Virus record (IMG/VR): IMGVR_UViG_3300045988_157791
From: a virus
Taxonomy: Duplodnaviria > Heunggongvirae > Uroviricota > Caudoviricetes
Strand: one strand, 5' to 3'
Length of the DNA: 64,000 nucleotides
Shown here: positions 2,023-41,650 of the stretch, one piece after another
Numbering within the stretch: position 1 is the first letter of the stretch
Layout of the letters: every line of letters starts with the position of its first letter
The notes under the pieces: model-generated
What the model saw: only the letters and a program-made list of their open reading frames with translations
What the model was told of the DNA's origin: nothing
Database searches by the model: none
Made by a program: the position numbers and the translations under genes

Positions 2023-2076
2023 TATCGTAAATAACAAATTGTTTTCTTGTTGGCGTTAATTATCGTTGTACGAATA
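2023..2076 (-). promoter_or_regulatory. conserved early-type promoter/leader motif (copy a)
   Basis: Minus-strand reading TTGACG-N15/17-GATAAT followed by a near-palindromic AACAAnTTGTT core just 5' of the RBS. Confidence 0.55.
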
Positions 2077-2215
2077 AGGCGTCAAAGTGGAAAGTTGCGG
2101 TAGCCGGACGGGAACAGGTGGGTTTGTCGGTTGCCTGGAGGTAAGAGGTTGGTGTTTTTAGCCTGAGGGAAACAGGATGGTCATTTAAGGCCACCAGCAT
2201 TGGTGGCCTTAGTCT

Positions 2216-2497
2216 TTAGTGGAGCAGACCGATGTCGATGGTATCCCCTGAATCACCCACACGGATCATCAGCATGGCGAAGGCGTTTAGTGGATAACTG
2301 GCGTGCCATTCAGGGAAGCGGTCATCTCGCATGAAGTCGGCAATGTCGTAAACGCAGCCCTCAAAGTGGAAGAATCGCGTGCTTACCTGCTCGTCATATT
2401 CCACATGATCCATTTCTTGCTGTTCTGTTTCCGGCAAGTCCAGCCATGATTCAAGGAATACATTTTGTGCTTTAGGGGTAATGGTGAAATCAGTCAT
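2216..2497 (-). CDS. hypothetical protein (93 aa)
   Basis: Start re-placed to the ATG with GAGGA SD (MTDFTITPK...), because the motif at 2515-2572 lies inside the longer track ORF. Confidence 0.5.
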   Translation of the reverse strand: MTDFTITPKAQNVFLESWLDLPETEQQEMDHVEYDEQVSTRFFHFEGCVYDIADFMRDDRFPEWHASYPLNAFAMLMIRVGDSGDTIDIGLLH

Positions 2498-2514
2498 GAG
2501 CATATCCTCACTGC

Positions 2515-2572
2515 GTAAACATGTTGTTTTCTTGTTGGTGTAATTATCGCAGTGTAGATAAGGCATAAAAGA
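2515..2572 (-). promoter_or_regulatory. conserved promoter/leader motif (copy b)
   Basis: AAACATGTTGTTTTCTTGTTGGTGTAATTATCGC, same architecture as the other copies. Confidence 0.55.
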
Positions 2573-2832
2573 AGTTAATACAGGCTGAATACACAAGAAA
2601 GGTTCTGGAAGTTGATAACCAGGTTTCAAACTAACCTTCGGTTATTAAAAGTCATTTAAGGCCACCAATGCTGGTGGCCTTAATAATTATCGCCCGATTA
2701 CGCTAAGGATCTTTTCCTCAACTGATTTGTTGTTGCGACTAAACTGCCTTGCGTATCTGATGACAGAAGAGGCGTTTTGCTTTCTGACCATCTCGGCTCT
2801 TTCCTTCAGGCGTTTCTTGAAATCGCCCATAT

Positions 2833-3207
2833 TTACCACCAGGCACGGAACGTCAGTCTATTATTGTGAAAGTCGTGGTTCTTAATCAGATCTTCCACAA
2901 GCTCTTTCAACTCCCCCACATCATGCCAGTAACCTTCATCGTACTCCTGACTGCCGAAGAAAAAACCTTCCCGGGTAGGCAAGTACTCTTCGCAATTACT
3001 TTCGTTTATGTGCATCAAATGAGCCTTCAGAAAACAAATGTCATTCATCGTTAATTCTAAAAGCTCACAATTTTCGACTTCACCTACGTTGCGCTCCATC
3101 CACCCAACGAGCGCATTGAACTTACGGAAGTAAGCAACCTGCTTTCTGGATGCCTCGTTATTCAGATCGTTTTTAGGCTGCGTCTCGATATAGATATCAA
3201 GTCCCAT
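2833..3207 (-). CDS. hypothetical protein (124 aa)
   Basis: ATG with AAGGAAA SD (MGLDIYIE...). Confidence 0.5.
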   Translation of the reverse strand: MGLDIYIETQPKNDLNNEASRKQVAYFRKFNALVGWMERNVGEVENCELLELTMNDICFLKAHLMHINESNCEEYLPTREGFFFGSQEYDEGYWHDVGELKELVEDLIKNHDFHNNRLTFRAWW

Positions 3208-3324
3208 GATGGTTTCCTTATTAAGTTGCTTCAGTGAAATCATTTTCACAAATCAGATAAGGCAGAAAACAGATTGTTATCGGGCATAAGAAAATGGCGC
3301 GGTTTACGCGCCATTCAAAGAGGA

Positions 3325-3720
3325 TTAAGCGAATACGCTTTCAGGGATTAAGGTGTCAGCAGGAATGCCGGAGGTAATGCGCAGGCCGTACTGACCAATC
3401 CAGGTAGTGTTGGTATTCAGGCTGGAGGCGAATACGGTGTTAACCATATTCATCATGGTTTCAAACACCTCTTCATCAACCTGGCGGAAGTAGTTCTCGA
3501 TTTTCAGCAGCAGCGGGTCAGTTGCATCGAAAATAGACTGGTATTGAGTCGCGTACTCGCCGCCGGAGGCATCACCTTTACGCACGATCGTACTGGCCTG
3601 GACTTCGGCACCAGTTTCGGTGTTGTACGTAACAACGGTGATTTTTGCCACATTCTTACCTTCGGCGGTTTCAGAGGCATAGTAAACATCAACTGTCAGT
3701 TTTTCGCGTTTAACGGTCAT
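3325..3720 (-). CDS. hypothetical protein (131 aa)
   Basis: ATG with GGAGAG SD (MTVKREKL...). Confidence 0.5.
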   Translation of the reverse strand: MTVKREKLTVDVYYASETAEGKNVAKITVVTYNTETGAEVQASTIVRKGDASGGEYATQYQSIFDATDPLLLKIENYFRQVDEEVFETMMNMVNTVFASSLNTNTTWIGQYGLRITSGIPADTLIPESVFA

Positions 3721-3782
3721 TTCACTCTCCGTAGTGTATTGGTTATTTTTATATTCTATGATCGTAAGTATGTACTTACAAT

Positions 3783-3812
3783 ACAAAAAAGCCCCGTAAG
3801 GATGGCGGGGCT
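3783..3812 (-). terminator. rho-independent terminator
   Basis: Hairpin GCCCCGtaaggatggCGGGGC followed by a U-run on the minus strand. Confidence 0.6.
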
Positions 3813-3846
3813 GTCGTACGGTCGACTAATTACCACTTGCACATTA

Positions 3847-4158
3847 TCAGGCTATTGCCATCACTGATGCTCTCTGAATCTCTTGCTGGGCCACGCGGTT
3901 AACTTCCATCAAAGCCAGTTCGAGCTGATGTTCCGGCCACATTCTTTGAAATGCCACCCAGCCTTTTCCACGCTGGCGACGAACATTCATTACATAACGA
4001 GTAAAGGTGTTTTTATCGAAAGACACCGCTGTTTCACGGAATAGACGAATAGAGGTTCCATTGGCAACGATATCCAGCAAAGTTAATTGAGCAACCAGTG
4101 CAGGCTTCTCTTTTCTCTTCTGGTCTTTGTCCAGACCAAGAACCAATGATTTTTTCAT
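3847..4158 (-). CDS. hypothetical protein (103 aa)
   Basis: Track ORF begins at a TTG; ATG with GGAG SD chosen (MKKSLVLG...). Confidence 0.45.
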   Translation of the reverse strand: MKKSLVLGLDKDQKRKEKPALVAQLTLLDIVANGTSIRLFRETAVSFDKNTFTRYVMNVRRQRGKGWVAFQRMWPEHQLELALMEVNRVAQQEIQRASVMAIA

Positions 4159-4165
4159 CACAACT

Positions 4166-4215
4166 CCGTAAACAACTTGTTTTCTCAATGGCGTAAATAA
4201 TACCAGTAAGAAAAC
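4166..4215 (-). promoter_or_regulatory. conserved promoter/leader motif (copy c, variant)
   Basis: AAACAACTTGTTTTCTCAATGG. Confidence 0.45.
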
Positions 4216-4311
4216 GGCTACAAAGCATATTGATCAGGTGCATGAGCGATATGCAGGTTCTTCCCTGCGGCTATAGAGAAATTAAGCCAGCAAAGCTGGC
4301 TTTGGTTGGGG

Positions 4312-4641
4312 TTACTCGAATACTTCAAGAAACTCCTGAACGTCCCAATGCTGGACGAGGTGAAGATAGACCTTAGAAATCACGTCATTTTCGCTATCGC
4401 ATGTGAAGTAGTACTTCTGGCTGCGGTTGTATGTGTCCACACAAAATTCGCTCATATCCATAAAGTCAGCATCTTCACCCATGTCGCAAATCATCAAAGC
4501 AGGTGCGTCATCACGAGTCATCAGCTCAAGCACCCACCGCGAATTGATCAGAGTGGAAGACCAACCTTCTAACTCATAAAACTGATCAAACTCTTTTTGA
4601 GTTAATTTCTTGATTTGGTTGATGTCGATATTTGCAAACAT
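4312..4641 (-). CDS. hypothetical protein (109 aa)
   Basis: ATG start (MFANIDINQ...) directly downstream of motif copy d. Confidence 0.5.
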   Translation of the reverse strand: MFANIDINQIKKLTQKEFDQFYELEGWSSTLINSRWVLELMTRDDAPALMICDMGEDADFMDMSEFCVDTYNRSQKYYFTCDSENDVISKVYLHLVQHWDVQEFLEVFE

Positions 4642-4651
4642 AAAGCAACCC

Positions 4652-4708
4652 TTAAACAACATGTTTTCTTATTGGTGTTATTATCGCAATAACGCATAGG
4701 CGAAAAAG
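4652..4708 (-). promoter_or_regulatory. conserved promoter/leader motif (copy d)
   Basis: AAACAACATGTTTTCTTATTGGTGTTATTATCGC...GGCGAAAAAGG. Confidence 0.55.
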
Positions 4709-4999
4709 GATTTTATTCCGGTGAATGTGGTTTTGGCAGTGAGTTTTCAGGTTCAGTACCGAGTACACTTTTTACATTATTCTGATTTAGTAGCCGAAGG
4801 TGGCTGGTGGGCAGAATAATCATCTCCCCGAAAACCTACTGAAATCGATTGTGACCCGTTGGCTGTCTGGCACAATTACGCTGTAGCTGGGCATTCAGAG
4901 GGAATCCAGCGGTAAGTAAGTTCGCCTGCACGTGAGCGCCTCTCTTCTTCCCGCACATTACAGGTGGGTAGCCGCAACTCTCCCTCTCGCTATACCGGT

Positions 5000-5140
5000 A
5001 CGCCGCCGTTCCTGAACCGGCATCGAGCCTTTTCCCGAAATCCACACAGGCAACTCGACCGTTTCCCTGAAAACCTCCAGCCGTTCCCCGAAGGCAACCC
5101 AGCCGTTTCTGTAGCGGGATGCAGCCTTTTCCCTGTATGG
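5000..5140. repeat. iteron-like array, six GCCGTT(T)CCC-GAA units at about 22-bp spacing
   Basis: Units at about 5004, 5027, 5059, 5080, 5102 and 5124; no credible ORF. Confidence 0.55.
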
Positions 5141-5289
5141 ACCGAAGGCTGACCGTAGGGGTGTTACGGGGGATAAAATCAGGAGTTGAATAAATACGAA
5201 AAAGGAGGCGACACCCCTCCTTCCCTCCCAACTTATACATACCTGTCTTGTTCGCTATACATGTTGTGTTTTCTTCGTGTTTTATCTGT

Positions 5290-6110
5290 TTCAACCTCTC
5301 TATAGGCGTTAATGCTCACTCCTTCCAGAACGTTCTATACGGCGACTATTTCTGTTGGTGAATTGGGTGTGTTGTTTTCCCTGTCGGTGTATGTGGTTTC
5401 GTTCGTTTTGCGATGGTTCTTCTATGGGGTGTTCTCGTCGTTTTGGTGATTGTTCTTCTCCGTGTATGGAGTAATGGCAGGTGGGCGATTCCTTTCGTTA
5501 TTGTGTTTGAGTTGTTTGTCTGGAGTGCGTGAAGGGCTTTTGTAGTTATTCGTGTATTGGGTAATGGCGTTTCCCGTGATTGTTATGTTTCGTGTCTTTT
5601 GGGATTGAGAGAAACCTTGCGGTTACAGGCTTCGTTGGGGTTTCAGTGATTCTGATGTTTCTTCGCTGTTTGGGTAATGGCGTGTCGTGGGTATCGCGCG
5701 TATGAATGTTTTCGGATTGCCTGTGAAAGTTAGGTTGGTTGTCCGGTAGCCTGGGAAGAAGAGGTGGGTCTTTTCGGTAGCCTGCCATAAAGAGGTTGGT
5801 TGTTTTTGGTAATGGCATATGTGTTATTTAGTTGTTTTGTTATACCTGAAAATAAGTTGTTTATATGGTTATGTAACGCAACGGGAGCGATTTTGAGCGT
5901 GTGTTTTTGTTGGTAGTGTGTTGGGTCGTCTGTGGTGAAAATTGGACGCTGTGGCGCTGTCTGCTGCGTAGAGTTACGGGTATAAGAAGTGATGTGTGAA
6001 AACGTCAATTTTTTAGACCAAATCGGGTGAAAGCGTTGACGTTTCGTTGATCTGTTATTTAGTTGTTTTCTTATTTGTATAAACAACCATAACCTATTGA
6101 TATTTAATGA
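5290..6110. repeat. strongly GT-skewed non-coding region with degenerate ~100-bp repeats (GGGTAATGGCG cores)
   Basis: Top strand depleted in A and C; GGGTAATGGCG-like cores near 5476, 5562, 5668 and 5805; track ORFs here are low-complexity. Confidence 0.5.
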
Positions 6111-6205
6111 TGTGATTGCTGGTATGGGAGGGGAGTAGTGGCGATCAACGGATTCTTATAGAAAAGAATCAAATTGTGACCGCCATTATCAATGAGTTGC
6201 AACCG

Positions 6206-6775
6206 TTAGTTGTTCAGATAAACATTTGGAACACGGACGTAGAAGTTCCTGTCGCCGGTAAGTTCCAGAGTAATGTTAATGTCATTACCATTGTCTAGTG
6301 TAGCCGTTGCTCTATAGAACTTATCCGTCACCTTGTCCTCTATTGTCACCTTCATACATTTTGGTGCAGTCGAACCGTTATTCTCTTTCAGAATAGTTGT
6401 CACGAGAGGGCAGGCTGCTTCTTCAAGAGCAACCTCGTCCTTGTGTGGGATGCCGATGAAGATAACCCAAGCCAGCGACGCAACGATTATGATAAATGGC
6501 ACTCTGCTGCCTTTTGTAATAGTCGCGCGCTTCCAGAGATAGACAGGCAGGAGGAATACCCCCCATAGAATTGAAGGTGGTTCACAGCCAGACTCCGATA
6601 GAGCCATTCTGTCAGCTACTAACAAACCGATGGTAGTTACACCCCCAATTATAATAGCGTAATTGGTATACTCTTCCGGCGATACTCCAAAGAAGAAAGG
6701 CATGAACGCTAGAATCCACGCATAAATGTTATTCAGAGGTTTTGTTTGTTGGTTCTGGGTTTCCATCACATCCAT
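6206..6775 (-). CDS. membrane protein, about four predicted N-terminal TM helices (189 aa)
   Basis: Long hydrophobic N-terminal segments followed by a soluble C-terminal domain. Confidence 0.5.
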   Translation of the reverse strand: MDVMETQNQQTKPLNNIYAWILAFMPFFFGVSPEEYTNYAIIIGGVTTIGLLVADRMALSESGCEPPSILWGVFLLPVYLWKRATITKGSRVPFIIIVASLAWVIFIGIPHKDEVALEEAACPLVTTILKENNGSTAPKCMKVTIEDKVTDKFYRATATLDNGNDINITLELTGDRNFYVRVPNVYLNN

Positions 6776-6927
6776 TCCATCACATAAAAATCGCGTTTAT
6801 ATATTATCAATTTTCTCACTTGTATAACCTAAATACGCATCCGTTTATCAATCCACCTTCCACAAACATCAGCTTTAGCTATGAAAAATAACAATCTCAA
6901 AGTGAAAACCATTATCATAGGAAACGA

Positions 6928-7113
6928 TTAGATGAGATGGTCTAATTCATCATCTATCATTGCTTTAACACTTGAGTCATTAACCCCGTATTGATTTATG
7001 AACCGTTTCAGCTCCGGTGAAAACTGAAGGTAGATATCGTGAGCGTTTTTCACTGTAGGTTCAACGCCACGCATTTCAAGCGCCTTTAGTAGATATGAGT
7101 CTTCTTTAAGCAT
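6928..7113 (-). CDS. hypothetical protein (61 aa)
   Basis: ORF only. Confidence 0.3.
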   Translation of the reverse strand: MLKEDSYLLKALEMRGVEPTVKNAHDIYLQFSPELKRFINQYGVNDSSVKAMIDDELDHLI

Positions 7114-7149
7114 AAATTCTCCGTTGTCTAGTATGAAGCGATTGCCGGA

Positions 7150-7449
7150 TTACCATTGCCAGCACTCTAGCCCTTCAACGACCGGTGCACCACAATCAAA
7201 ATGTACAGAGTCAAAGCCTACATCAAGTACTTTCTGAATGTTCGCAATCGCGCCCTCGGATATACCATATCGACGCAACTCATCTTTCCAGTCATCGTCC
7301 TGTAACCCGGCGTGGACAATGCAACCGTACTCAATTTGTGAAACCCAATCCAGCTCATTGCTTGCGATCATGAATCGGCGAGCATCTTCCTCTGATGTAT
7401 GAGATGAGCTGATCAATGCCACCTGGTAGGCTTGGGTAATGTTCAACAT
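7150..7449 (-). CDS. hypothetical protein (99 aa)
   Basis: ATG with GGAG SD; motif copy e upstream. Confidence 0.45.
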   Translation of the reverse strand: MLNITQAYQVALISSSHTSEEDARRFMIASNELDWVSQIEYGCIVHAGLQDDDWKDELRRYGISEGAIANIQKVLDVGFDSVHFDCGAPVVEGLECWQW

Positions 7450-7460
7450 TTCAACCACTC

Positions 7461-7525
7461 CAAAACAAGTTGTTTTCTTATGTGGTTTATTATCTCCATC
7501 AACAAAAGGCAGAAAACAAATTGTT
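7461..7525 (-). promoter_or_regulatory. conserved promoter/leader motif (copy e, with a second partial core)
   Basis: AAACAAGTTGTTTTCTTATGTGG plus downstream AAAACAAATTGTTTT. Confidence 0.5.
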
Positions 7526-7565
7526 TTAGGTACTGTGTAAATCAGAAGGGATTGTGTCTATATGA

Positions 7566-7610: not shown

Positions 7611-9644
7611 TTACTTAACCTGGTGGCCAGGTTTAGCACCAGCATCCGGGCTTAACAGGAAGATATCTTTCCCGCCGGGGCCAGCAGCCATCACCATGCC
7701 TTCAGAGATACCGAAGCGCATTTTACGTGGTGCCAGGTTAGCCACCATAATGGTGTGACGACCAATCAGTGCCTGCGGATCCGGGTAGGCAGAACGAATA
7801 CCGGAGAAGACATTGCGTTTTTCACCGCCGAGATCCAGTGTCAGGCGCAGCAGTTTGTCAGAACCTTCAACAAACTCTGCGTTTTCGATCAGCGCTACGC
7901 GCAGGTCAACTTTGGCGAAGTCGTCAAAGGTGATGGTTTCCTGAATCGGATCATCTGCCAGTGGGCCAGTAACTGGCGCGGCAGCTGCTTTCACTTCTTC
8001 TTTAGACGCTTCCACCAGTGCTTCAACCTGCTTCATATCGATGCGGTTATACAGTGCCTTGAACGGATTTACTTTATGGCCCAGCAGCGGTTGCTGGATA
8101 CCATCCCAGGTCAGTTCTGTATTCAGGAATGCTTCTGCACGTTCAGTCAGTTTCGGCAGTACCGGCTTCAGGTACGTCATCAGCACGCGGAACAGGTTAA
8201 TGCCCATAGAGCAAATCGCCTGCAGATCGGCATCGCGTCCTTCCTGCTTCGCCACCACCCACGGAGCCTGTTCATCGACATAGCGGTTAGCCAGGTCAGC
8301 CAGTGCCATGATTTCACGGATAGCTTTACCAAATTCGCGGCTTTCCCACGCTTCACCAATCACTTCAGCGGCATCAGTGAAGGTTTTGTACAACTGCGGG
8401 TCAGCCAGCTCGCTTGCCAGCACACCGTCAAAACGCTTATTGATAAAGCCAGCGTTACGGGACGCCAGGTTAACCACTTTGTTCACGATATCGGCATTCA
8501 CACGCTGAACGAAATCCTCCAGGTTGAGATCGATATCATCAATGCGCGAAGAGAGTTTCGCAGTGTAGTAGTAACGCAGGCTGTCAGCGTCAAAATGATT
8601 CAGCCAGGTGCTGGCTTTAATAAAGGTGCCGCGAGACTTGGACATCTTCGCGCCGTTCACCGTCACATAGCCATGAACAAACAGGTTGGTCGGCTTGCGG
8701 AAGTTGCTGCCTTCCAGCATGGCAGGCCAGAACAGGCTGTGGAAGTAAACGATATCTTTACCGATGAAGTGGTACAGCTCGGCGGTGGAGTCTTTCTTCC
8801 AGTATTCATCGAAGCTTACGCTGTCGCCGCGCTTGTCGCACAGATTCTTGAAAGAACCCATGTAGCCAATCGGTGCGTCCAGCCAGACGTAGAAATATTT
8901 GCCCGGCGCGTTCGGAATTTCAAAACCGAAGTAAGGGGCGTCGCGGGAGATATCCCACTGTTGCAGGCCAGATTCAAACCACTCCTGCATTTTATTTGCC
9001 ACCTGCTCCTGCAACGCACCGCTGCGGGTCCATGCCTGCAACATTTCGCTGAAAGAGGGCAGATCAAAGAAGAAGTGTTCAGAATCACGCATTACCGGCG
9101 TAGCACCAGAAACCACCGATTTCGGTTCAATCAGTTCAGTCGGGCTGTAGGTCGCGCCGCAGACTTCACAGTTATCGCCGTATTGATCTGGCGCTTTACA
9201 TTTCGGGCAGGTGCCTTTCACAAAACGGTCCGGCAGGAACATGCCTTTTTCCGGATCGTACAGCTGAGAGATGGTGCGGTTTTTAATAAAACCGTTTTCT
9301 TTCAGGCGAGAGTAGATAAGTTCTGACAACTGGCGGTTCTCTTCGCTGTGCGTCGAGTGATAGTTGTCATAGCTGATGTTAAAGCCTGCGAAATCAGTCT
9401 GATGTTCCTGACTCATTTCGCCAATCATCTGCTCCGGTGTGATACCAAGCTGCTGAGCTTTAAGCATGATCGGCGTGCCGTGGGCATCGTCGGCGCAGAT
9501 GAAGTTGACCTCGTGGCCGCGCATTCGCTGGTAACGGACCCAGACATCAGCCTGGATGTGCTCCAGCATATGGCCGAGGTGGATTGAGCCGTTAGCGTAC
9601 GGCAGCGCGCACGTCACCAGAATTTTCTTCGCGACTTGGGTCAT
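7611..9644 (-). CDS. metG: methionine--tRNA ligase (677 aa)
   Basis: Start at [26 protein letters not shown] (HIGH-type motif), KMSKS present, zinc knuckles CPKC/CEVC, C-terminal tRNA-binding domain; I recognise it as enterobacterial MetG. Confidence 0.95.
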
Positions 9645-9801
9645 AGTAGGCATTACTTCTTTGTAGTGAAAAGGGGCTTGATAGTAACAAAATGGCCTTA
9701 TGTCTGCCATGTGATAACAGCATTTCTCATAAATGATTAAATGTCGTAGCTGGAGTACACTACAAGGCGACAATTGCGCAAATTAAAATAAAGGAGACGG
9801 G
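9645..9801. promoter_or_regulatory. divergent metG / apbC promoter region
   Basis: 157-bp AT-rich interval between divergent starts. Confidence 0.5.
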
Positions 9802-10902
9802 ATGAGCGAGTCCAAATCGCCGGATGCCCTGAGAGCAATGGTAGCCGGTACGCTGGCTAATTTTCAGCACCCAACCCTGAAACACAACCTGACTACGCTT
9901 AAAGCGTTACACCATGTTGCGTTGATGGATGACACACTGCATGTCGAACTAATCATGCCTTTCGTGTGGAATAAGCCTTTTGAAGACCTGAAAGAGCAAT
10001 GTAGTGGTGATCTGCTCCGTATCACTGGCGCAAAGGCTATTGACTGGAAGCTGTCGTACAACATTGCCACGCTTAAGCGCGTCAAAAACCAACCAGGCAT
10101 TAATGGCGTTAAGAACATTATCGCCGTCAGCTCAGGCAAGGGCGGCGTAGGTAAATCCTCCACGGCGGTAAATCTGGCACTGGCGTTGGCTGCTGAAGGT
10201 GCGAAAGTTGGTATTTTGGATGCCGATATCTATGGTCCATCAATTCCAACCATGCTGGGCGCGGAAAACCAACGTCCAACCTCACCGGACGGTACTCACA
10301 TGGCACCTATCATGTCTCATGGCCTGGCAACCAACTCTATTGGTTATCTGGTCACCGACGACAATGCAATGGTGTGGCGTGGACCGATGGCCAGCAAGGC
10401 GCTGATGCAGATGTTGCAGGAAACTCTATGGCCTGATCTGGACTATCTCGTTCTCGATATGCCGCCGGGCACTGGTGATATTCAGTTGACGCTGGCGCAG
10501 AACATTCCTGTAACTGGTGCGGTTGTGGTAACTACGCCGCAAGACATCGCGCTGATCGATGCGAAGAAAGGCATTGTGATGTTCGAAAAAGTCGAAGTGC
10601 CGGTACTGGGTATCGTCGAAAACATGAGTGTGCATATTTGCAGTAACTGCGGTCATCACGAGCCAATTTTTGGCACCGGTGGCGCACAGAAACTGGCCGA
10701 GAAATACAACACGCAGTTGTTAGGCCAAATGCCACTTCATATCTCTCTTCGTGAAGATCTGGATAACGGAACACCAACCGTTATTAGTCGTCCAGATAGC
10801 GAATTTACGGCTATTTATCGTGACCTCGCAGATCGCGTTGCTGCCCAAATGTATTGGCAAGGTGAAGTAATACCTGGCGAAATCGCATTCCGCGCAGTGT
10901 GA
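9802..10902 (+). CDS. apbC: Fe-S cluster carrier ATPase Mrp/ApbC (366 aa)
   Basis: P-loop SSGKGGVGKSS and CSNCGHH motif; Mrp/NBP35 family; divergent from metG as I recall for enterobacterial chromosomes. Confidence 0.9.
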   Translation: MSESKSPDALRAMVAGTLANFQHPTLKHNLTTLKALHHVALMDDTLHVELIMPFVWNKPFEDLKEQCSGDLLRITGAKAIDWKLSYNIATLKRVKNQPGINGVKNIIAVSSGKGGVGKSSTAVNLALALAAEGAKVGILDADIYGPSIPTMLGAENQRPTSPDGTHMAPIMSHGLATNSIGYLVTDDNAMVWRGPMASKALMQMLQETLWPDLDYLVLDMPPGTGDIQLTLAQNIPVTGAVVVTTPQDIALIDAKKGIVMFEKVEVPVLGIVENMSVHICSNCGHHEPIFGTGGAQKLAEKYNTQLLGQMPLHISLREDLDNGTPTVISRPDSEFTAIYRDLADRVAAQMYWQGEVIPGEIAFRAV

Positions 10903-12056: not shown

Positions 12057-12058
12057 AT

Positions 12059-13314: not shown

Positions 13315-13855
13315 AATGCTGACCCTCTTTGGTGAAAACGCCTGATGCAATACTGTTTATGATGCTGTCAGTACAGGGAGTAGAAAGCTGGGCATCTCCA
13401 GCTATTTTCATGACTTCGACATTCGCATATCGAATACCGAGGTGTATCAGACCTGCTATACCTGACTTAAGTCGAACATTTTCCATAAACAGATCCTTTT
13501 CCCGCTGTTTAACGGTCTCCAGCTCAACACGCAGTTTCTCAAGCGTTAGGGCCATCTCTACGTTCTCCTGCTCAAGACGTCGGATGTGTTGCTGTCTTTT
13601 ATCCAGTTCGTCCAGCAGTGCAATCACATCGGGATCACTATCATCAACTACTGTTACGCGTGATTTTTCATAATGTTCATCTGCAAAAGTACGCCCTATC
13701 TTAAAATATCCGTCATCACTCTCACCGGAACAGGCATAAACAACATGTGCTCCAGATATGCGCTGTATTGACATTTCCTCGCCACAAACAGAGCATTTAG
13801 GCGCTGGTTTTGGTGAATAACGTTCACGTAACGTCAGGTAGTAAATCTCATTCAC
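13289..13855 (-). CDS. hypothetical coiled-coil protein with N-terminal CxxC (188 aa)
   Basis: Heptad-rich central region (LLDELDKRQQHIRRLEQENVEMALTLEKL). Confidence 0.45.
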   Translation of the reverse strand: MNEIYYLTLRERYSPKPAPKCSVCGEEMSIQRISGAHVVYACSGESDDGYFKIGRTFADEHYEKSRVTVVDDSDPDVIALLDELDKRQQHIRRLEQENVEMALTLEKLRVELETVKQREKDLFMENVRLKSGIAGLIHLGIRYANVEVMKIAGDAQLSTPCTDSIINSIASGVFTKEGQHYENSRSSR

Positions 13856-14307
13856 TGTTTATTTCCTGTACGAAGCTCAGCGGCAAAAGCTACTGCGTGA
13901 TCATGATGTTCAAGTGTGTATGCGCACTCAGCAAACATCTCCACGCCCTGCGCACGTACTTCAGCCAGAAAAGCATCGGTGGCTGGAGTCTCCGTTAATT
14001 CGCTAACCCAATTATCTCCGTGTTCCTCGGCACACATCGCATCGAATGCTCGCTCAGATTCTTTCAGGGCTGCATTCTCCGCCGCTAATGCGTCTCTCTG
14101 CGCCCGCAACTTCTCAATTTCAGCAGCCATGTAGTAACCAACCATAGCGAAGACGGCAAAAGAGTTGTCTGCCTCATCAGGCGACACTGAGGCCATTAGC
14201 AGGCCATCGTAAAAATCGTGACTCCCATTGGTGATCGCCACCGCATAGGAGTCGTGGTTCTCGCGCTTGTGAATGAGAACTACGGGATTTTCGATTTTGT
14301 TACTCAT
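13852..14307 (-). CDS. possible Ead/Ea22-like lambdoid early protein (151 aa)
   Basis: Coiled-coil plus C-terminal FLAEVRAQGVEMFAECAY-type segment, recalled from Ead/Ea22-like proteins; conserved GGAAAAACAC-ATG initiation context. Confidence 0.4.
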   Translation of the reverse strand: MSNKIENPVVLIHKRENHDSYAVAITNGSHDFYDGLLMASVSPDEADNSFAVFAMVGYYMAAEIEKLRAQRDALAAENAALKESERAFDAMCAEEHGDNWVSELTETPATDAFLAEVRAQGVEMFAECAYTLEHHDHAVAFAAELRTGNKQ

Positions 14308-14445
14308 GTGTTTTTCTCTTCTTTGCTGTTACATAAGCACTACCAAGTGCTGGTTTATTTTCACAAATAAGAAAATGTAGAAAACAATTTATTTAAGGCC
14401 ATAAGTCATGGCCTTTATTTATTCATGCAGAAGGATTTGTAGCGC

Positions 14446-18334: not shown

Positions 18335-18904
18335 TCAATTAGAGCTTTGAAAGGCTTTGTGTGGCTGTGTTGCGAGGTTATGTCGATGGCTTAACTCACG
18401 CATCATGTCTTCAAGCCGACTCTTTGTGTCGTCGAGTTGGTCGGCCATTGCTCCCAAAAGCTGACGAACGGCCATCGGATCATCGCTGTTTAGTGATGGC
18501 ATTTTATAACCCGCCTGAGAAGACATAAGATTGAACGCAGACATCAACATCGTTAGAGAGGATTTAAGCCCAGCAATTTCACGATCTTTGCTGGCAATAA
18601 TCGCCTCACTCTTGTTAGTGTCATCAGTTCGTTGAGTCTCGCTCACCATATCCAAAGTCGCCTGCAACTTATCAGCGCGCTCTTTTTCAGCAAGATAATG
18701 AACACCGAAATGATGTGCTAAAGCTACAACCTGAGTTGGCTCTTCAAAGGTGGACTCAAAATTAAGTGCTGTAACCACTCTCTCAAATATGGAAACGTCT
18801 TCTATTCCTCGAAGAATGGCTAACATTTTGACCAGTTCATTAGCATCCATTTCTTCGAATAAGGCGTTTTGTTCATCAGCTATCGCTTTGCATTTCTTGC
18901 ACAT
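18335..18904 (-). CDS. hypothetical protein (189 aa)
   Basis: ORF with conserved initiation context; motif copy f upstream. Confidence 0.5.
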   Translation of the reverse strand: MCKKCKAIADEQNALFEEMDANELVKMLAILRGIEDVSIFERVVTALNFESTFEEPTQVVALAHHFGVHYLAEKERADKLQATLDMVSETQRTDDTNKSEAIIASKDREIAGLKSSLTMLMSAFNLMSSQAGYKMPSLNSDDPMAVRQLLGAMADQLDDTKSRLEDMMRELSHRHNLATQPHKAFQSSN

Positions 18905-18918: not shown

Positions 18919-18970
18919 GCTTAAACAAGTTGTTTTCTTATTGGCTTTATTGTGATGTGGCATAAAAGGG
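18919..18970 (-). promoter_or_regulatory. conserved promoter/leader motif (copy f)
   Basis: TTAAACAAGTTGTTTTCTTATTGG...GGCATAAAAGG. Confidence 0.55.
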
Positions 18971-19201: not shown

Positions 19202-19627
19202 TTAGAGATAAGCATCCAGTGACAACTGAAGCGCCTGTGCGATCTTTTTCAGGGCCAGCTCTTCTTGTTCGCCAATACCGTCTTGGTCGGCAATATCAAG
19301 GCACAGACACAGTACATCTACTGCATCATTAGTCCCGGCCACATCAGCCAGCTCACGTAAAGCCTGGGCATTAGCGCGGCGCGGTGAGGCTTCGTATTGA
19401 GCACGGATATTGGCGCTCATTTGGGCAATCTCACCAGCAAACGGAGAAAACGCAGGCAGAGCTGCAATTGTTTTCTCAAGAATGGAAATTTCCTTTGCGT
19501 CGCATGTGCCATCGGCATAGGAGATCATGTACGCGCCCCACACGGTGGCTTCAACCGCATCTCGGTTCTCCATTTTTTTGACCTCGATAACAGCTTTACG
19601 AGTTTTCTTTTTGAATAAACCTAACAT
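19202..19627 (-). CDS. TerB-like domain protein (141 aa)
   Basis: All-alpha protein with acidic DxxDG/EQEE pattern typical of the TerB fold (by recollection). Confidence 0.5.
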   Translation of the reverse strand: MLGLFKKKTRKAVIEVKKMENRDAVEATVWGAYMISYADGTCDAKEISILEKTIAALPAFSPFAGEIAQMSANIRAQYEASPRRANAQALRELADVAGTNDAVDVLCLCLDIADQDGIGEQEELALKKIAQALQLSLDAYL

Positions 19628-19647: not shown

Positions 19648-19700
19648 GTTAAAACAAGTTGTTTTCTAGTTACATGAATTGCTTACGAAAAGACGGTCAA
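19648..19700 (-). promoter_or_regulatory. conserved promoter/leader motif (copy g)
   Basis: TTAAAACAAGTTGTTTTCTAG. Confidence 0.5.
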
Positions 19701-28708: not shown

Positions 28709-29851
28709 TTACAGGTCAGCAAACTGGCTTAGAGAAGCCTTATCCACGGTAGAATCGATCTGACCTACCAGATATGTGCTTTGCTCTGCCTCTTGTGGTG
28801 CAATTTGCAGTGTGTCGGTTAACAACCACTTGTTCATCCAGACCAGCGGATCGGTGGTAACCTCTGGAAATAAAGCCTTCAGGCCAAGACGATTCATAGC
28901 CAGATTGGTGCGGTATTTTACATAGGTTTTGAGAATATCCGCGTTTAAACCAATCATCGAACCGTCTTTGAAGAGATAGTCTGCCCAGTTCATTTCTTGT
29001 TCGGCGACTGATTTCATGGTGTCGTAAATGACGTTTTCTTCATCAGCAGCAATCTCTTTCCACAATAAACCTTCGCGACCGGTACGCATGAAGCGGATCA
29101 TGCGTTCAGTTCCTTCGCAATGCAGAGCTTCATCACGGGCAATAAAGCGCATAATTTTGGTGTTACCCTCAAGCAACTTCCGTTCGCCAAAGGCAAACGT
29201 ACATGCAAAACTTACATAGAAACGGATCGCCTCAAGCGCATTAATGGACACCAACGTGCGGAAAAGCTGACGGTGCAAAGGGTATGGCTCCCAGCCATAT
29301 TCATTTACGTACAGACGTTCAAACTCCTTCTCACCTAACGACTGGCGCTCGCAGGTCATCCCATAAAGCCTGTCATATTCAGCAGAGATACTGATCGCTC
29401 GGTTGATGATTTCTTCATCCGTAACAATACCGTCAAAAACAATGCTCGGATCGTCCACCATGCCACGAATAATGTGGGTGTAGCTGCGGCTATGGATAGT
29501 CTCAGAGAAAGACCATGTTTCAACCCACGTTTCCAGTTCAGGAATAGAGATAAGCGGCAGCAGCGTTGCATTTGGGCTACGTCCCTGAACTGAATCGAGT
29601 AACGTTTGATAACGGAGATTGCTCAGAAAAATGTGACGTTCGTGGTCCCGCAGCTTCGTGTTGAAGTCGATACGATCGCTCGAAATATCAACTTCTTCCG
29701 GCCGCCAGAAGAAAGACAATTGACGTTCAATCAACTTTTCAAAATCACGGTATTTTTGCTGATCGTAACGTGCCACGTTGACAGATTGTCCGAGGAACAT
29801 AGGCTCTTTGGTTGCATCATTAGCACCCAAACGGAACGTTGAATATGACAT
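28709..29851 (-). CDS. nrdB: ribonucleotide reductase class Ia beta subunit
   Basis: Near-collinear with E. coli NrdB as I recall it ([66 protein letters not shown]). Confidence 0.9.
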
Positions 29852-29878: not shown

Positions 29879-29925
29879 GTTTAAACAAGTTGTTATCTTA
29901 TGTGTTTAAACAAGGCTTACAAATC
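29879..29925 (-). promoter_or_regulatory. conserved promoter/leader motif (copy h)
   Basis: TTTAAACAAGTTGTTATCTTATGTG. Confidence 0.5.
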
Positions 29926-36890: not shown

Positions 36891-37144
36891 GTGTTTTTCC
36901 TTTGTGGTTATTTTGATACAAATTCTAAGAGCAATGAGGAGGTAAACAACTATGCATAACGGTATGTTAGGAATGAAACGAGCGCCTTAATATACAAAAT
37001 TTATAAGTAAGTATATACCTATTTATCGTGGCGCAACTTTGCTTGTCTGTATGACTAAAAATAAGACAGGATCACTGTAGAACGCTATGAGAGCTATTTT
37101 GAGGGGGCGTAGATTCTATCTACGCCAATATACGATCTGGAGGG

Positions 37145-37789
37145 TTACAGCGCGTCAGTGGGCTTTTTACGCGCTGCATTTATGCTTATGACGCCAGCTT
37201 TAGGACGTGGATCGACAAGGTTCAGTTCTTCTTCGCTATGGTATTCAAGGTCGAACTCACGTTTTACATGTCTGATGTAGATTGCAGTGAGCAGGCTATC
37301 TTTGGTCAGGAAGTGTCCGTAGGATTTGCGGATCACTTCTTCAACCTTCTCGATTTTCTCACCACCCATGCAGAGGTGATTAAACCGGCTGTGTTTCCGC
37401 AACATCTCGTCAACTGGGCCTGAGTAAACCTTGTCTACTTTCCCAAAACGAATGATTTTTCCTGTATCTGCGGATACAAGGCAAATCAGTTTGTCTGGTG
37501 ATAAACGATCTCGCCACGTTACTCCTGAACGGAGTGTGTTGAAGTAGGGCGCATCCAATCCGATGATCGGTTTACGAAATGCGAGCAATGGAACGTACCT
37601 GATACAACTATTCAAATGAAAGTTCACACCAGCCTTATCAAGTTTAATTCTGGTTTCGTAGATCGGGCACTTCGCCGCTATACCGCAGATATCACAAAGT
37701 AACTTCTGCTTATTCAGGTTGGAATTTGATTCGATAGTGTAGGAGCCGTCCTCAAGACGACGAACCCAGCGCGTGCGTTTTAGATCCAT
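37145..37789 (-). CDS. hypothetical protein (214 aa)
   Basis: ORF. Confidence 0.45.
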   Translation of the reverse strand: MDLKRTRWVRRLEDGSYTIESNSNLNKQKLLCDICGIAAKCPIYETRIKLDKAGVNFHLNSCIRYVPLLAFRKPIIGLDAPYFNTLRSGVTWRDRLSPDKLICLVSADTGKIIRFGKVDKVYSGPVDEMLRKHSRFNHLCMGGEKIEKVEEVIRKSYGHFLTKDSLLTAIYIRHVKREFDLEYHSEEELNLVDPRPKAGVISINAARKKPTDAL

Positions 37790-37864
37790 AATCGTTTTTT
37801 CAGTAGTTATTGGCCGATGCTACGATAACTCATTAGGCATACCTTAATCTGCATTTGCCTGTTT

Positions 37865-38505
37865 TACTTATCCCAGTTATCCACTGGATAGATCCAAATA
37901 AGAGATCCCAAGTAAGATCAAATAGAAGATCCAAAGAGATCCCCGATCGCCTCTAGCCGTTGCGGTTACTGGTCTGAAAGGGTGTTGCCATCCACTATGG
38001 AGAGCAAAGAAACCTCTGTAGAGAGCTGAATAACCGCTATGAAGAGTAAAACAACCACTCTGGAGAGCTGTATATATCCACTGTAGAGAGTAGAGCACAT
38101 TGTCTTTTATGGATAACTTAATGACTTAATTCTTCATTAACATACTGATATACATAGATATATTTTAAACTCTACTCTTAGTCATGATTCTTATGTCCTT
38201 AAATATCCACAGAAGAGTAGAGTTACCTGTTCTTGAAATCCTCTGATTTTTATCCACAGGCCCGATCCAGTAATTCAGATCACAAAGAGAACCAAAGAGA
38301 CCCATAAAGACCCAATAAGATCCCCGCCCACCTCAAACCGTTGTGCCATCTGCCTTCAGACATGATCGATATCCACTATAGAGAGCGAATAATCCACTAT
38401 AGGGAGCAAAGCAACCACTATAGAGAGGAGAAAAACCACTATAGACGGTAGGATAACCGCTGTGATGAGTGCTACTATCCACTGTAATCAGCAAAGGCCA
38501 CCAAA
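37865..38505. repeat. plasmid-type replication origin: DnaA boxes, GATC cluster, AT-rich tract and about 11 iterons upstream of repA
   Basis: TTATCCACA at 38250-38262 and a near-copy at 37876; GATC clusters at 37900-37950 and 38277-38330; iterons (A/T)(T/A)CCACT(A/G)TAGAGAG at 37990-38090 and 38374-38490. Confidence 0.8.
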
Positions 38506-38532
38506 GCCGTCGAATAACAAGAGACATTTGGA

Positions 38533-39588
38533 ATGAGCGAAAACGGCAATAAAAACATAGCGATCGTTGAAGCATTTTCAGAAACAGATAAAAAGACAGG
38601 CGAAGTTGTTACGTTGGTTCCTAACACTAATAACACTGTTCAGCCTGTTGCTTTGATGCGTCTGGGCCTCTTCGTTCCGACGCTGAAATCGACATCCAGA
38701 GGAAGAAAGGGGCAAATGGTCTCTATGGATGCCTCTGCTGAACTCAAACAGCTGTCTCTGGCAAAAGCCGAAGGGTACGAAGACATAAGGATCTCTGGCC
38801 TTCGGCTTGATATGGATAACGACTTTAAAACGTGGGTGGGAATAATCCACGCGTTTGCCAAACACAAGGTCGTTGGCGATACTGTCACGTTGCCGTTCGT
38901 TGAGTTTGTAAGGCTGTGTGGCATTCCGACCGCCAGGTCATCAGCGAAGTTACGCAAACGCCTGGACAGTTCGCTAAGCCGTATTGCCACAAATACCATC
39001 TCGTTCCGTAGCAAAGGCTCTGATGAGTTTTACGTAACGCATCTTGTGCAAACGGCAAAATATAGTGTCAAGCACGATACGGTCGAACTGAAAGCAGATC
39101 CCAAGATTTTCGAACTCTACCAGTTCGACAAAAAGGTTCTTCTGCAACTCCGGGCTATAAACGAACTCTCAAGAAAAGAATCCGCTCAGGCGCTTTATAC
39201 TTTTATTGAAAGTTTGCCGCCTGATCCGGCACCAATATCACTAGCCCGTTTACGCGCCAGACTTAATCTGACAAGTCGCACTATTACTCAGAATGCGACG
39301 GTAAGAAAGGCTATGGAACAGCTGCGAGAGATAGGATATCTCGATTACACGGAAGTTAAGCGCGGAAACTCGGTCTACTTCGTCATCCACTATAGGCGGC
39401 CAAAGTTACGCCAGGCACAAATATCAACAAAAATCGATAATGATGAGACGGAATATAGCCTCCCAGATGAGAATCAAGATGACATTATCGACGTTGTGCC
39501 TGACGAAAAAGAAGGCAAAATGGTCATGTTGAGTAAAGAAGAACTGGCGCTTCTCGAAGAGTTGCGCAAGGCAAAGACTCGCAAATAG
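38533..39588 (+). CDS. repA: RepFIB-type replication initiator RepA
   Basis: Matches RepFIB RepA as I recall it ([60 protein letters not shown]...[43 protein letters not shown]); iterons on both sides. Confidence 0.85.
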
Positions 39589-39589
39589 C

Positions 39590-40075
39590 CCAACCACTGT
39601 AGTTAGTAGTAAGGCTCACTATCCACTGTAGTGAGCCTTACTTATATCTGTAATTCGCTATCCACTATAGTGAGTATCGTTATCTGTTGATAACCACTGT
39701 AGGCAGTAGAATGCAAATACTGAATTAAATGTTAGTGATCACTAACACTGATGAAACAAGGGCTGCGAGGTTAGTGGTCACTGGGTATCTTGGAAAATTT
39801 ACTGTCTATAGTGGTTGTTGTCGCCCTCATCTTTGAGCGTATCCACTGTGGCGAGTGGATATCCACTGAAAACAGCAAAGGCTTACTCACCATAGTGGAT
39901 ACCCGCTGGACATCTCACTCCAATACTCACCATAGTGGTTGTTTGATGCGAATGAAAGGCTGTCTACTCGCTACAGTGGTTAGCAGATATGTAGGAAGGT
40001 TTTGTTACTGACTACAGTGGATAATGAGCTGGATACGAATGCGGTGAGTAGTCTGCTCACCGCAGTGGTTGGTGC
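39590..40075. repeat. downstream iteron array in both orientations
   Basis: At least 12 copies of (T)ATCCACTGTAG / CTACAGTGGTT-like units. Confidence 0.8.
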
Positions 40076-40077
40076 TA

Positions 40078-40290
40078 TTAGTGTATTTTCTTCAACAGAC
40101 CCCAAAGTGTTCCGGCTTTTGTAGTCAGTTTTCCTGTTTCTGGATCGTACATACGCCATTCACGCCGCTGGTGGACGATATACCCATCTTCACGTTCCAG
40201 ACGCTCAAGAATGCCAGGCTGCTTGAAACCCTTAGCACGCCAGTAGCCGCTTGTTTTCTCGATTTCCAGACCTGCCAGTGTTAATGCCAT
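40078..40290 (-). CDS. hypothetical protein (70 aa)
   Basis: ORF. Confidence 0.4.
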   Translation of the reverse strand: MALTLAGLEIEKTSGYWRAKGFKQPGILERLEREDGYIVHQRREWRMYDPETGKLTTKAGTLWGLLKKIH

Positions 40291-40625
40291 TATCCAACCT
40301 CCTTGCAGTCATCGAAAAGGTAGCTTTGCTGAGAAGCGTGAACGCCATAGAAGCCCTTGTATTTGTTGTATACGAAGTGGTCTTCTCCGACGCCGGTTAA
40401 TTTGCCATTACGATTTGTGAGATATGGGGATGACAACACTCGATCGTCACGCACAACATAGAACTGGTCGCCGCTGTCTACGACCATCGCTCCATATGGT
40501 GCTTTTATGACGTCGGTAAGAGCGCCATTCTTAACGTCGGCTACAGACATTTCACACTGATAAACAGTGGTGTCGGCCACAACGATCGAAGAAAGGAACA
40601 ACAGCGCGAATAGGATGGCCTTCAT
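40290..40625 (-). CDS. secreted hypothetical protein (signal peptide, 111 aa)
   Basis: N-terminal MKAILFALLFLSSIVVA signal-like segment. Confidence 0.45.
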   Translation of the reverse strand: MKAILFALLFLSSIVVADTTVYQCEMSVADVKNGALTDVIKAPYGAMVVDSGDQFYVVRDDRVLSSPYLTNRNGKLTGVGEDHFVYNKYKGFYGVHASQQSYLFDDCKEVG

Positions 40626-40800
40626 GCTGCCACCTCTTTGATTACATCAAATGCTGAATTAAATACGAGCACGATAGCCAAAGCGTTTATGACTACGTCG
40701 TGCACCGGGGAAAAGACTTTACGAATGACACCAGTGAAAATGCAGTCGATGACAAAAGCTATTGAAACGATGAGTAACAAGTATTCAATAAAAATCTTCA
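40622..40800 (-). CDS. small membrane protein (58 aa, not in the ORF track)
   Basis: ATG at 40798-40800, two hydrophobic helices, stop overlaps the next gene's ATG. Confidence 0.35.
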
Positions 40801-40840
40801 TGATAGGTAGATACTAACTTATATAAATTTTACTGTAAAC

Positions 40841-41116
40841 TCACTCAAAAGTGCTGATGCTTAAAATACGCTCAAGATGTTCGGCATCTTCATCACTGAT
40901 TTGTTGAGTCTCTTCTACGTACCAACAGTTGCCGTTATGCCAACAAACACCATCATCATCAACCATCACTGAATCAGCGTCATGACCTGTATATTCAACG
41001 AGAATACGCTGGATCAGCGCGTCAGTTTCTTCGTCGTTAAGGCCATCGGCTTTGACCATAAAAAGCGGAAACACGTCATAGACAGTGCTGGTAACGATTC
41101 GAACTAAAACTCTCAT
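40841..41116 (-). CDS. hypothetical protein (91 aa)
   Basis: ORF with conserved initiation context. Confidence 0.4.
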   Translation of the reverse strand: MRVLVRIVTSTVYDVFPLFMVKADGLNDEETDALIQRILVEYTGHDADSVMVDDDGVCWHNGNCWYVEETQQISDEDAEHLERILSISTFE

Positions 41117-41171
41117 GTGTTTTTCCTTTTGTGGTTAGTGTTTACTTATTTTGTTAGTTATGAATAGGCGA

Positions 41172-41597
41172 TCAATCTTCTTGTTTAGGGAAAAACTGTT
41201 CAATAACTCTGTCAACGGCTGTGTCTATATGGAGTAGATGCCACACAACCATATCTTTGCTTCCCATGCCTTGTGTGAATATCACGTCATACTTACGCCA
41301 TGCGCAGTGGAACCAATATGCTGAGTCATCAATTGGTAAATCCTCTCCCGCCTCTTTGAAGTATTTCAGCAGCATTGCCTGCTCTGCCGTTGGCGTTGGA
41401 CCTATTTCCTGAGCGTACATACGGATGAATCGCTGCCAGTCTGTCTCGTCGGGGGTTGGATCTGGTGGGGTCATTTCTGCGATAGCGTTTCGTAGCTGAT
41501 GCGCCCAATCAGGTTCAGGAAAGCCTTTTGCTACTTCATCATCAATAACATCCAGAGCCACGTTTGCGGCATCGTAGAGTTTCTTAATAGCTGTCAT
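41172..41597 (-). CDS. hypothetical protein (141 aa)
   Basis: ORF; motif copy i upstream. Confidence 0.45.
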   Translation of the reverse strand: MTAIKKLYDAANVALDVIDDEVAKGFPEPDWAHQLRNAIAEMTPPDPTPDETDWQRFIRMYAQEIGPTPTAEQAMLLKYFKEAGEDLPIDDSAYWFHCAWRKYDVIFTQGMGSKDMVVWHLLHIDTAVDRVIEQFFPKQED

Positions 41598-41612
41598 GTT
41601 TTCTTATCCTTT

Positions 41613-41650
41613 TAAACAAATTGTTTTCTTAATAAGATAATTGCGATAAA
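41613..41650 (-). promoter_or_regulatory. conserved promoter/leader motif (copy i)
   Basis: TTTTAAACAAATTGTTTTCTTAATAAGATAATTGCGATAA. Confidence 0.5.

Follow-up and report, generated by a model that had tools for sequence, protein, structure and literature searches.

The phage-plasmid P1 places operators for one repressor, C1, at many positions over ~90-110 kb, many of them at early, replication and accessory promoters. In mycobacteriophage L5, work by Brown et al. in 1997 is said to have described stoperators, asymmetric 13-mers that are bound by the gp71 protein as a monomer and silence the prophage. The partition-linked systems of omega (pSM19035), KorB (RK2) and the dispersed Sop sites (phage-plasmid N15) have proteins that bind their own promoter and dispersed ones, and so link maintenance with gene silencing. 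At the RNA level, many early mRNAs of T4 are under repression by RegA, a protein without the Sm fold, whose A/U-rich target sites lie by the ribosome-binding site and overlap the start codon. T4-type PeSL cassettes and the start-associated sequences of Cluster K mycobacteriophages are repeated promoter/leader or pre-start motifs, and PeSL cassettes flank small ORFan genes in plastic parts of the genome. We describe here a repeat in a 64,000-nucleotide stretch of DNA (hereafter the window) from the Caudoviricetes virus record IMGVR_UViG_3300045988_157791, belonging to a phage-plasmid of the SSU5/pHCM2 type: a promoter-plus-leader unit of 55-70 bases that carries the near-palindrome (A)GAAAACAAnTTGTTT(A). 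The repeat is very probably a cis-regulatory cassette that defines a regulon. Our favoured and still tentative reading, to which we give a rough probability of 0.45, is that it acts at the DNA level as a dispersed operator for a repressor encoded by the element itself.

As a dispersed phage operator the repeat would join the C1 operators of P1, the stoperators of L5 and control of the omega/KorB type. It resembles the C1 operators in lying at dispersed early, replication and accessory promoters of a phage-plasmid; the P1 operator, however, is an asymmetric 17-mer (ATTGCTCTAATAAATTT) of unrelated sequence, and no C1 homologue is seen here. With the L5 stoperators it shares many short intergenic sites oriented with transcription, at promoters and inside operons, whereas its core is a dyad, inverted upstream copies occur and most copies stand at a fixed distance from the -10 hexamer. 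The likeness to omega, KorB and Sop is that the parA promoter carries the same dyad as the dispersed sites and that a conserved small protein is encoded after parA. Unlike in the omega, KorB and SopB systems, there is a single parA dyad and no array, the site and protein sequences are unrelated, and the binder is a candidate only.

Identity of the element

The first 20 kb of the window match Escherichia coli plasmids such as pSCU-306-2 at 98% and phage Cyrano at ~96%, while Salmonella phage SSU5 matches at ~81% and over parts only. Judged by these matches, the window is 64 kb of an E. coli phage-plasmid of the SSU5/pHCM2 type. Relative to Cyrano, which is the phage-plasmid carried by strain LF82, the window is in reverse orientation (its minus strand equals Cyrano's plus strand), and it extends from a block of small genes beside Cyrano gene 113 through metG, nrdAB and repA to a tRNA cluster. 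T4-like early genes (gp32-like, UvsW, UvsY, nrd and pnk) are carried by the element.

Phage-plasmids of this type are common in E. coli, Salmonella (including Typhi), Klebsiella and Enterobacter. They are known to carry resistance genes (PMC9600943). A search of the literature on SSU5, pHCM2, phage-plasmid regulation and FljA yielded no description of the motif or of the function of the FljA-like gene discussed below, and nothing was found there on the choice between plasmid life and lytic growth in SSU5/pHCM2-type phage-plasmids.

Copies of the repeat

The core of the repeat is a dyad, AAACAA n TTGTTT, whose arms pair in 120-151 of 153 distinct copies, depending on the position. The sequence AACAANTTGTT occurs 8 times in the window, against 0.18 expected by chance. 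A 25-nt weight matrix was built from the window copies and scored against shuffled sequence. It gives nine minus-strand sites with scores of 23-39, the best shuffle score being ~19, and so bears out the nine copies, each in sense orientation before a minus-strand gene, that had been picked out by a reading of the sequence alone (the sequence-only reading). All nine are intergenic, with the dyad centre 15-42 nt before the start codon (Table 1); at 4176, 4660 and 7469 the 3′ flank of the motif (AAGG or GGAG) doubles as the Shine-Dalgarno site. Three inverted copies, one left-half copy and one weak copy are additions to that earlier list. An independent repeat search recovers a unit of 55-69 nt that reaches from the dyad back through the -10 to a '-35' block. 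The matrix has 10 matches in the window; in 818 kb of chromosome sequence taken from 105 enterobacterial genomes it has none, even when the threshold is relaxed.

The genes downstream include those for a TerB-family protein, NrdB, a DUF5983 protein and a DUF7238 protein; the others have no protein family. The sequence-only reading had counted the TerB-like gene, small hypothetical genes and nrdA among the co-regulated set. The first two stand, but the third was mistaken, the copy in question preceding nrdB.

Table 1. Copies of the repeat in the window
Copy	Dyad centre	Coordinates	Strand	Context
Strong copy	2038	2028..2052	-	before 160-amino-acid gene 1529-2011; -10 GATAAT 2059-2064; TTGACG -35-like block upstream
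Strong copy	2523	2513..2537	-	before gene 2216-2503; -10 GATAAT 2543-2548
Weak inverted copy, upstream type		3259..3283	+	before gene 2833-3249
Strong copy	4176	4166..4190	-	before gene 3847-4161; -10 TATTAT 4197-4202; 3′ flank GGAG = Shine-Dalgarno site
Strong copy	4660	4650..4674	-	before gene 4312-4641; -10 GATAAT 4680-4685
Left half only (AAATAAGAAAACAAC), no right arm		6052..6076	-	
Strong copy (downstream candidate operator)	7469	7459..7483	-	before DUF5983 gene 7150-7458; -10 GATAAT 7489-7494
Inverted upstream copy	7520	7506..7530	+	51 bp upstream of the 7469 copy, over the -35 position of the same promoter
Inverted copy, upstream type		14374..14398	+	adjoins hairpin 14395-14415; over the -35 of the promoter of gene 13852-14307 (-10-like GAAAAT)
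Strong copy, best-scoring	18929	18919..18943	-	before 189-amino-acid gene 18335-18904; -10-like CACAAT 18949-18954
Strong copy	19658	19648..19672	-	before TerB-family gene 19202-19627; no clear -10 at the usual offset
Strong copy	29889	29879..29903	-	106-nt nrdA-nrdB spacer, before nrdB 28709-29851 (PF00268); no -10
Strong copy	41620	41610..41634	-	before DUF7238 gene 41172-41597; directly after a terminator hairpin; weak -10 candidates only
Weak copy (GTAAATAATTTGTTTTC)		55842..55870	-	before cobT-like gene 53722-55830; SSU5 orthologue at 42721 scores higher

Three small observations concern the surroundings of these copies. Two 27-nt GC-rich hairpins (TTAAGGCCACCAGCATTGGTGGCCTTA; 2185-2211 and 2657-2683) are perfect reverse complements of each other and flank gene 2216-2503 with its motif promoter, like a cassette with the same terminator both ways. 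The annotated starts of Cyrano CYRAN_105 (95805) and CYRAN_110 (97903), whose counterparts in the window are genes 4312-4641 and 2216-2503, lie within the motif or upstream of it; an ATG that follows motif and Shine-Dalgarno site is the likelier start, and both genes are probably annotated too long. The left-half copy lies inside a stretch of ~1.5 kb (~4800-6200) that has no annotated gene in the closest plasmid record and is dense in direct-repeat families (25-37 nt, 2-4 copies each), some copies of which lie near 1404 and 2124.

Structure of the unit

A -10 was accepted where at least 4 of 6 positions match TAnnnT at a consistent position. The sequence-only reading had given every copy a sigma70-like promoter; a -10-like hexamer at one fixed offset is present in six of the nine (GATAAT four times, TATTAT and CACAAT), but is absent at that offset from 19658 and 29889 and weak at 41620. 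Over 159 non-redundant promoters of the family the -10 forms a sharp positional peak, with 28 at the peak offset and 0-10 at others; a second peak (22) consists of the same family sites read in the inverted orientation. In 24 aligned copies the -10 sits 11-12 nt upstream of GAAAACAA and the dyad centre 19-20 nt 3′ of the -10. With the transcription start placed ~7 nt after the -10, the dyad centre would lie at about +13. The left arm is better conserved than the right, its half-site GAAAACAA being nearly invariant among the 153 distinct copies.

The -35 region is of a different quality. A generic sigma70 consensus scan calls none of the nine copies because the -35 is poor: TTGACG occurs at the 2038 copy only, where the spacer is 15-16 bp, against the 16-18 bp set for a -35. 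At the DUF5983 gene a second, inverted dyad stands exactly 51 bp upstream of the first (7520 versus 7469), with identical spacing in Cyrano and SSU5. This upstream dyad overlies the -35 and recurs at several non-orthologous family promoters. Many non-orthologous family promoters are ordered as terminator hairpin, inverted dyad, -10, dyad and Shine-Dalgarno site, and where the full upstream dyad is missing, the '-35 block' (TTTTnTGCC) is its promoter-proximal half.

Some copies depart from this plan. The copy in the nrdA|nrdB spacer and the one before the helicase are without a promoter, with no -10 at either; since it lacks a -10, the former is probably operon-internal, and it is kept in SSU5 at 70211. 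The promoter of gene 13852-14307 has the upstream-type copy without a downstream one, and the orthologous site of that copy in SSU5 is at 85598.

The sequence-only reading had also offered a conserved 5′ leader hairpin, and this is not supported. Fold energies of the core reach only -0.3 to -1.0 kcal/mol, with no fold for one copy out of the nine, and shuffled sequences are as structured as the leaders (z -0.9 to +0.6). Among the 153 distinct copies there are no compensatory pairs, and the right arm decays to mismatches (C-A 18 times, A-A 16-18 times); no Rfam match falls on the motif sites. On fold energy and the lack of covariation we reject a leader hairpin or structured cis-regulatory RNA.

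Conservation among related phage-plasmids

Cyrano has the same sites and, in addition, copies at the parA promoter, before the replicative helicase gene and, as a pair 25 bp apart, upstream of terS; SSU5 has ~18 sites at corresponding genes. The structural-gene third of the genome has no copies besides the terS pair. Several copies are found in 46 of 50 related viral contigs (FljA-like protein 74-99% identical), the four exceptions being short loci, and several also in relatives in which that identity falls to 53-57%. Across hosts ranging from Escherichia to Nissabacter the motif does not change. In a pattern scan of viral contigs, the multi-copy loci among the matches listed are all of SSU5-like composition, and the single matches listed from low-GC contigs look like chance.

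When one orthologous promoter, that of gene 1529-2011, is aligned from six relatives, the invariant parts are the -35 block, CGATAAT and CCA..AA.AAAACAA.TTGTT, and the stretch from dyad to ATG varies freely. Comparison thus upholds, in Cyrano, SSU5, Klebsiella and more distant relatives, the earlier impression that conservation goes beyond what a promoter needs: as judged by these alignments, the core is so conserved family-wide at orthologous and non-orthologous promoters alike.

A distant relative of 40% GC, plasmid pW18-2-b of Moellerella wisconsensis (locus L288, 5090-5225), keeps AATAAGAAAACAA without a right arm upstream of parA, with two direct AAATAACAAGGC repeats directly before the start; its other leaders keep only an A-rich TAAGAAAA-like stretch. 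As these sites keep the left half without the right arm, the left half looks older than the dyad.

Expression in the lysogen

The LF82 transcriptome lists gene-level RNA-seq values for every Cyrano gene, with a median of 9.8 in overnight culture in lysogeny broth (PMC9928086, S1 table). Twelve of 15 motif-led genes are at background there, at 5.7-12.9: terS 7.1, the cobT-like gene 7.8, gene 58 5.7, nrdB 12.9, tciA 7.0, gene 87 7.1, gene 93 6.3, gene 101 7.5, genes 105 and 106 ~12, gene 108 5.7 and gene 110 6.7. Essentially, then, the plasmid state leaves the regulon switched off.

Proposed operator function

We propose a regulon of ~15-20 promoters that includes parA, the replicative helicase gene, nrdB and a block of small genes of unknown function. 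In the sense direction its cassette consists of the terminator hairpin of the preceding gene, an optional inverted dyad near -38, a -10, a dyad at about +13 from the putative start and a Shine-Dalgarno site. The -10 is good (GATAAT, sometimes TGnGATAAT), and the '-35' look-alike is the promoter-proximal half (TTGTTTTnTGCC) of the upstream inverted dyad. A DNA-binding protein encoded by the element would occupy the dyads and, from +13 and where present from -38, would keep RNA polymerase from binding or from escaping the promoter; where a copy has no promoter, as at nrdA|nrdB, the bound protein would be a roadblock. Some 15-20 early, replication, nucleotide-metabolism, accessory and partition units would in this way be kept down during plasmid life.

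Action on DNA is favoured by the exactness of the dyad, by its over-representation on the element with no match in the host-type DNA, and by a distance that is fixed to the -10 and not to the start codon. The upstream inverted dyad lies between terminator and start, a position untranscribed in the sense direction, and the terS dyads stand in tandem. The missing signal of RNA structure and the logic of autoregulation at parA point the same way. The operator for an element-encoded regulator with a co-regulated gene set, as suggested by the sequence-only reading, is a candidate that fits all findings, among them the fixed -10 distance, the inverted copy at -35 and the silence in the lysogen. The motif supplies a concrete map of such a regulon and narrows its regulator to a short list of candidates.

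Candidate binders

The leading candidate is a small protein with a ribbon-helix-helix-like sequence pattern, encoded directly after parA (CYRAN_29 in Cyrano). It has 119 amino acids, is 91-100% identical in 11 SSU5-like phages and occurs at ≥90% identity in ~740 plasmid records; a disordered basic N-terminus is accompanied by the invariant segments KSRTMSxEDE and FTRSDVIRAAI. In the LF82 lysogen its gene is expressed, with a value of 89. Autorepression is the rule among type Ib partition proteins, and the only dyad of the parA promoter, at about +13, is the present motif; it is kept there even in a plasmid whose par-linked homologue is only 48% identical. With this protein as binder, the element would have a global regulator like omega or KorB, tying partition to phage-gene silencing; if it does bind, the two processes are coupled.

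Two other small proteins, CYRAN_123 (encoded directly upstream of the terS dyads) and CYRAN_37, have winged-helix-like sequences and are conserved in the family, with weak matches; they are weak further candidates. PHROGs and Pfam searches with 20 small conserved proteins gave no other annotated regulator. CYRAN_45, annotated as a helix-turn-helix repressor, was rejected, being absent from the motif-bearing SSU5 and having no motif in its own divergent control region. Co-variation of motif and regulator is uninformative, in that the motif is unchanged with FljA-like proteins at 53-57% and with the par-linked protein at 48% identity; in this last homologue the putative DNA-reading segment is itself conserved.

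Two further observations come from par regions. Upstream of parA in Cyrano (29100-29270) there are four half-site-like ANTTGT(T/G) sequences in one orientation, ~40 or 80 bp apart. The last is part of the motif; the set is absent from SSU5, where a terminator lies near the promoter, and it may be due to chance. A 188-kb Klebsiella plasmid carries a piece of the par module, but this piece is debris flanked by insertion sequences and was of no use.

Several points weigh against a DNA operator. All the binders named are candidates. The par-linked protein looks like a ribbon-helix-helix protein by eye, from its sequence pattern only; it has no Pfam or PDB match and one weak NCBIfam match, and its monomer model is poor (predicted local distance difference test 64), too poor for a structure search. 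Beside parA there is one dyad only and no type Ib centromere array in Cyrano, SSU5 or a divergent Klebsiella plasmid. Conservation is asymmetric, and always in the same way on the sense strand: the right arm is less well preserved than the left half and the 6-8 nt 5′ of it (CCAAnAAG). Perfect dyads do not keep the genes with the best -35 from being transcribed in the lysogen (parA 49.8, the helicase gene 21 and gene 111, the orthologue of window gene 1529-2011, 25.5), so that weak promoters may be all that lies behind the silence of the other genes. Finally, the element encodes a core RNA-binding protein, FljA-like, that is still in need of a target.

Possible action on RNA

The gene for this protein belongs to the FljA family (PF03614, 'repressor of phase-1 flagellin'; Cyrano 100780-101301), with a full-length match at E = 1e-80. 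It lies ~320 bp beyond window position 1 (L002:40781-41302, minus strand) and belongs to the core gene set of SSU5-like phage-plasmids, even those from Klebsiella, which has no flagella; in remoter relatives its place is in one operon, after the genes for a UvsW-like helicase and a protein of 92-101 amino acids. The product is only ~40% identical to canonical FljA, and its structure model predicts two tandem Hfq-like Sm domains.

The main rival, which we consider rather unlikely, is that the repeat, once transcribed (5′-CCAAnAAGAAAACAAnUUGUUUAAGG, with its end at the Shine-Dalgarno site or immediately before it), is an RNA operator bound by the FljA-like protein. Salmonella FljA acts on the fliC leader by keeping ribosomes out and/or hastening mRNA decay, and the FljA-like protein would do the same here; it would repress early genes globally and after transcription, in a role comparable to that of T4 RegA. 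This would explain the strict sense orientation of the strong copies, their place against the Shine-Dalgarno site (which three of them abut) and the promoter-less copies inside operons, and it would give a core RNA-binding protein without other evident target something to bind. Hfq-type proteins bind AAN triplets, and the one-sided extra conservation CCAAnAAG can be read as such. Transcripts are, moreover, present from the stronger promoters. For most of the putative targets, however, the mRNA itself is at background, and the inverted upstream copies and the tandem terS copies would be on the wrong strand or untranscribed. It is not obvious what use a protein that binds single strands would have for an exact dyad, the hairpin being neither stable nor covarying, and the distance that is fixed is to the -10. 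Since the motif is unchanged while the FljA-like protein drops to 53% identity, the comparison cannot tie the one to the other.

The described FljA target offers a direct comparison. The Salmonella fliC leader, read from genomes, has CCCAATAACATCAAGTTGTAATTGATAAGG directly before the start and has CCAATAA and CAAGTTGT in common with the motif, a likeness of marginal significance (p ~0.01-0.03). For the E. coli fliC leader p is 0.045 in local alignment and ~0.47 with a two-block matrix, so that the likeness to fliC is weak and, by the latter measure, absent in E. coli. The two systems are alike in having a full-length FljA-family protein, a motif between promoter and Shine-Dalgarno site and the shared CCAATAA...CAAGTTGT; they are unlike in that ~20 putative targets, none flagellar, stand here against one, with the divergent protein and the marginal sequence likeness already noted. 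The likeness to T4 RegA is that of a phage element with T4-like early genes and A/U-rich sites near the ribosome-binding site, but RegA differs in fold and its sites overlap the start codon; no RegA homologue was seen, though no search was aimed at one.

On this most novel and rather unlikely reading, the family would have recruited a repressor of flagellin phase variation, FljA (modelled here as two tandem Hfq-like Sm domains), to silence its own early, replication and partition genes globally and after transcription, through a conserved leader operator, A-rich and U-rich, on ~20 mRNAs. If the FljA-like protein does bind, it would be a new kind of control over phage lysogeny or the plasmid state, and the motif would be the first large target set of the FljA family and reveal the sequence that the family recognises.

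Other explanations

We consider it improbable that these are activator-dependent promoters, at which the dyad, especially the one near -38, binds a phage activator made after induction in place of a -35. Class II activators and the Mor and C proteins of phage Mu do compensate for a missing -35, and a poor -35 with a good -10, the dyad near -38, the genes silent in the lysogen and the winged-helix-like CYRAN_123 and CYRAN_37 (family-conserved, if weakly matched) would all suit such a class. Activators, however, do not act from +13, the place of the near-universal copy; most window promoters have no upstream copy or only a decayed one, and there are copies without any promoter.

There is little to recommend a reading without any dedicated regulator, in which an expression cassette of promoter and A/U-rich translational enhancer has been spread by recombination, in the manner of the PeSL cassettes in T4-type phages, and the dyad is incidental. 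It is the whole 55-70 nt unit that is repeated and not the dyad alone; the units flank small ORFan genes with their own terminators (the hairpins at 2185-2211 and 2657-2683 included), and gene content between cassettes differs among relatives. Repeat units with terminator hairpins here flank small genes of unknown function and to that extent resemble PeSL cassettes, and the motif stands close before many start codons, as the Cluster K sequences do; neither of these two kinds of repeat, however, includes a dyad operator held at a set distance from its -10, and their sequences are unrelated. Dyad and -10 are, however, far better kept than the spacers across the ~81%-identical genomes and distant relatives, which argues for selection on the dyad itself, and there are promoter-less and inverted copies as well.

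Recruitment of a host transcription factor or nucleoid protein to the dyad is very improbable: the site is A/T-rich and at promoters, but no host consensus matching the dyad was found, the 105 enterobacterial chromosomal loci gave no matrix match, and the motif does not change with the host.

Other features of the window

At the right edge of the window there are genes for tRNA-Ser(TGA) (63613-63699, minus strand) and tRNA-Thr(TGT) (63924-63999, minus strand); the 2 kb beside them (60001-62000) have only 33.5% GC, against ~45% elsewhere in the window. The methionyl-tRNA synthetase gene metG (7611-9773, minus strand) and an ApbC/MinD-like ATPase gene (9802-10902, plus strand) lie on opposite strands, and in the LF82 lysogen the ATPase gene is expressed at 92 and metG at 16 (median 9.8). 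Rfam gives a full-length match to the cspA thermoregulator 5′ untranslated region at 47995-48413 (plus strand; 185.7 bits, E = 2.4e-49), which implies a cold-shock-protein gene with its regulatory leader aboard the phage-plasmid.

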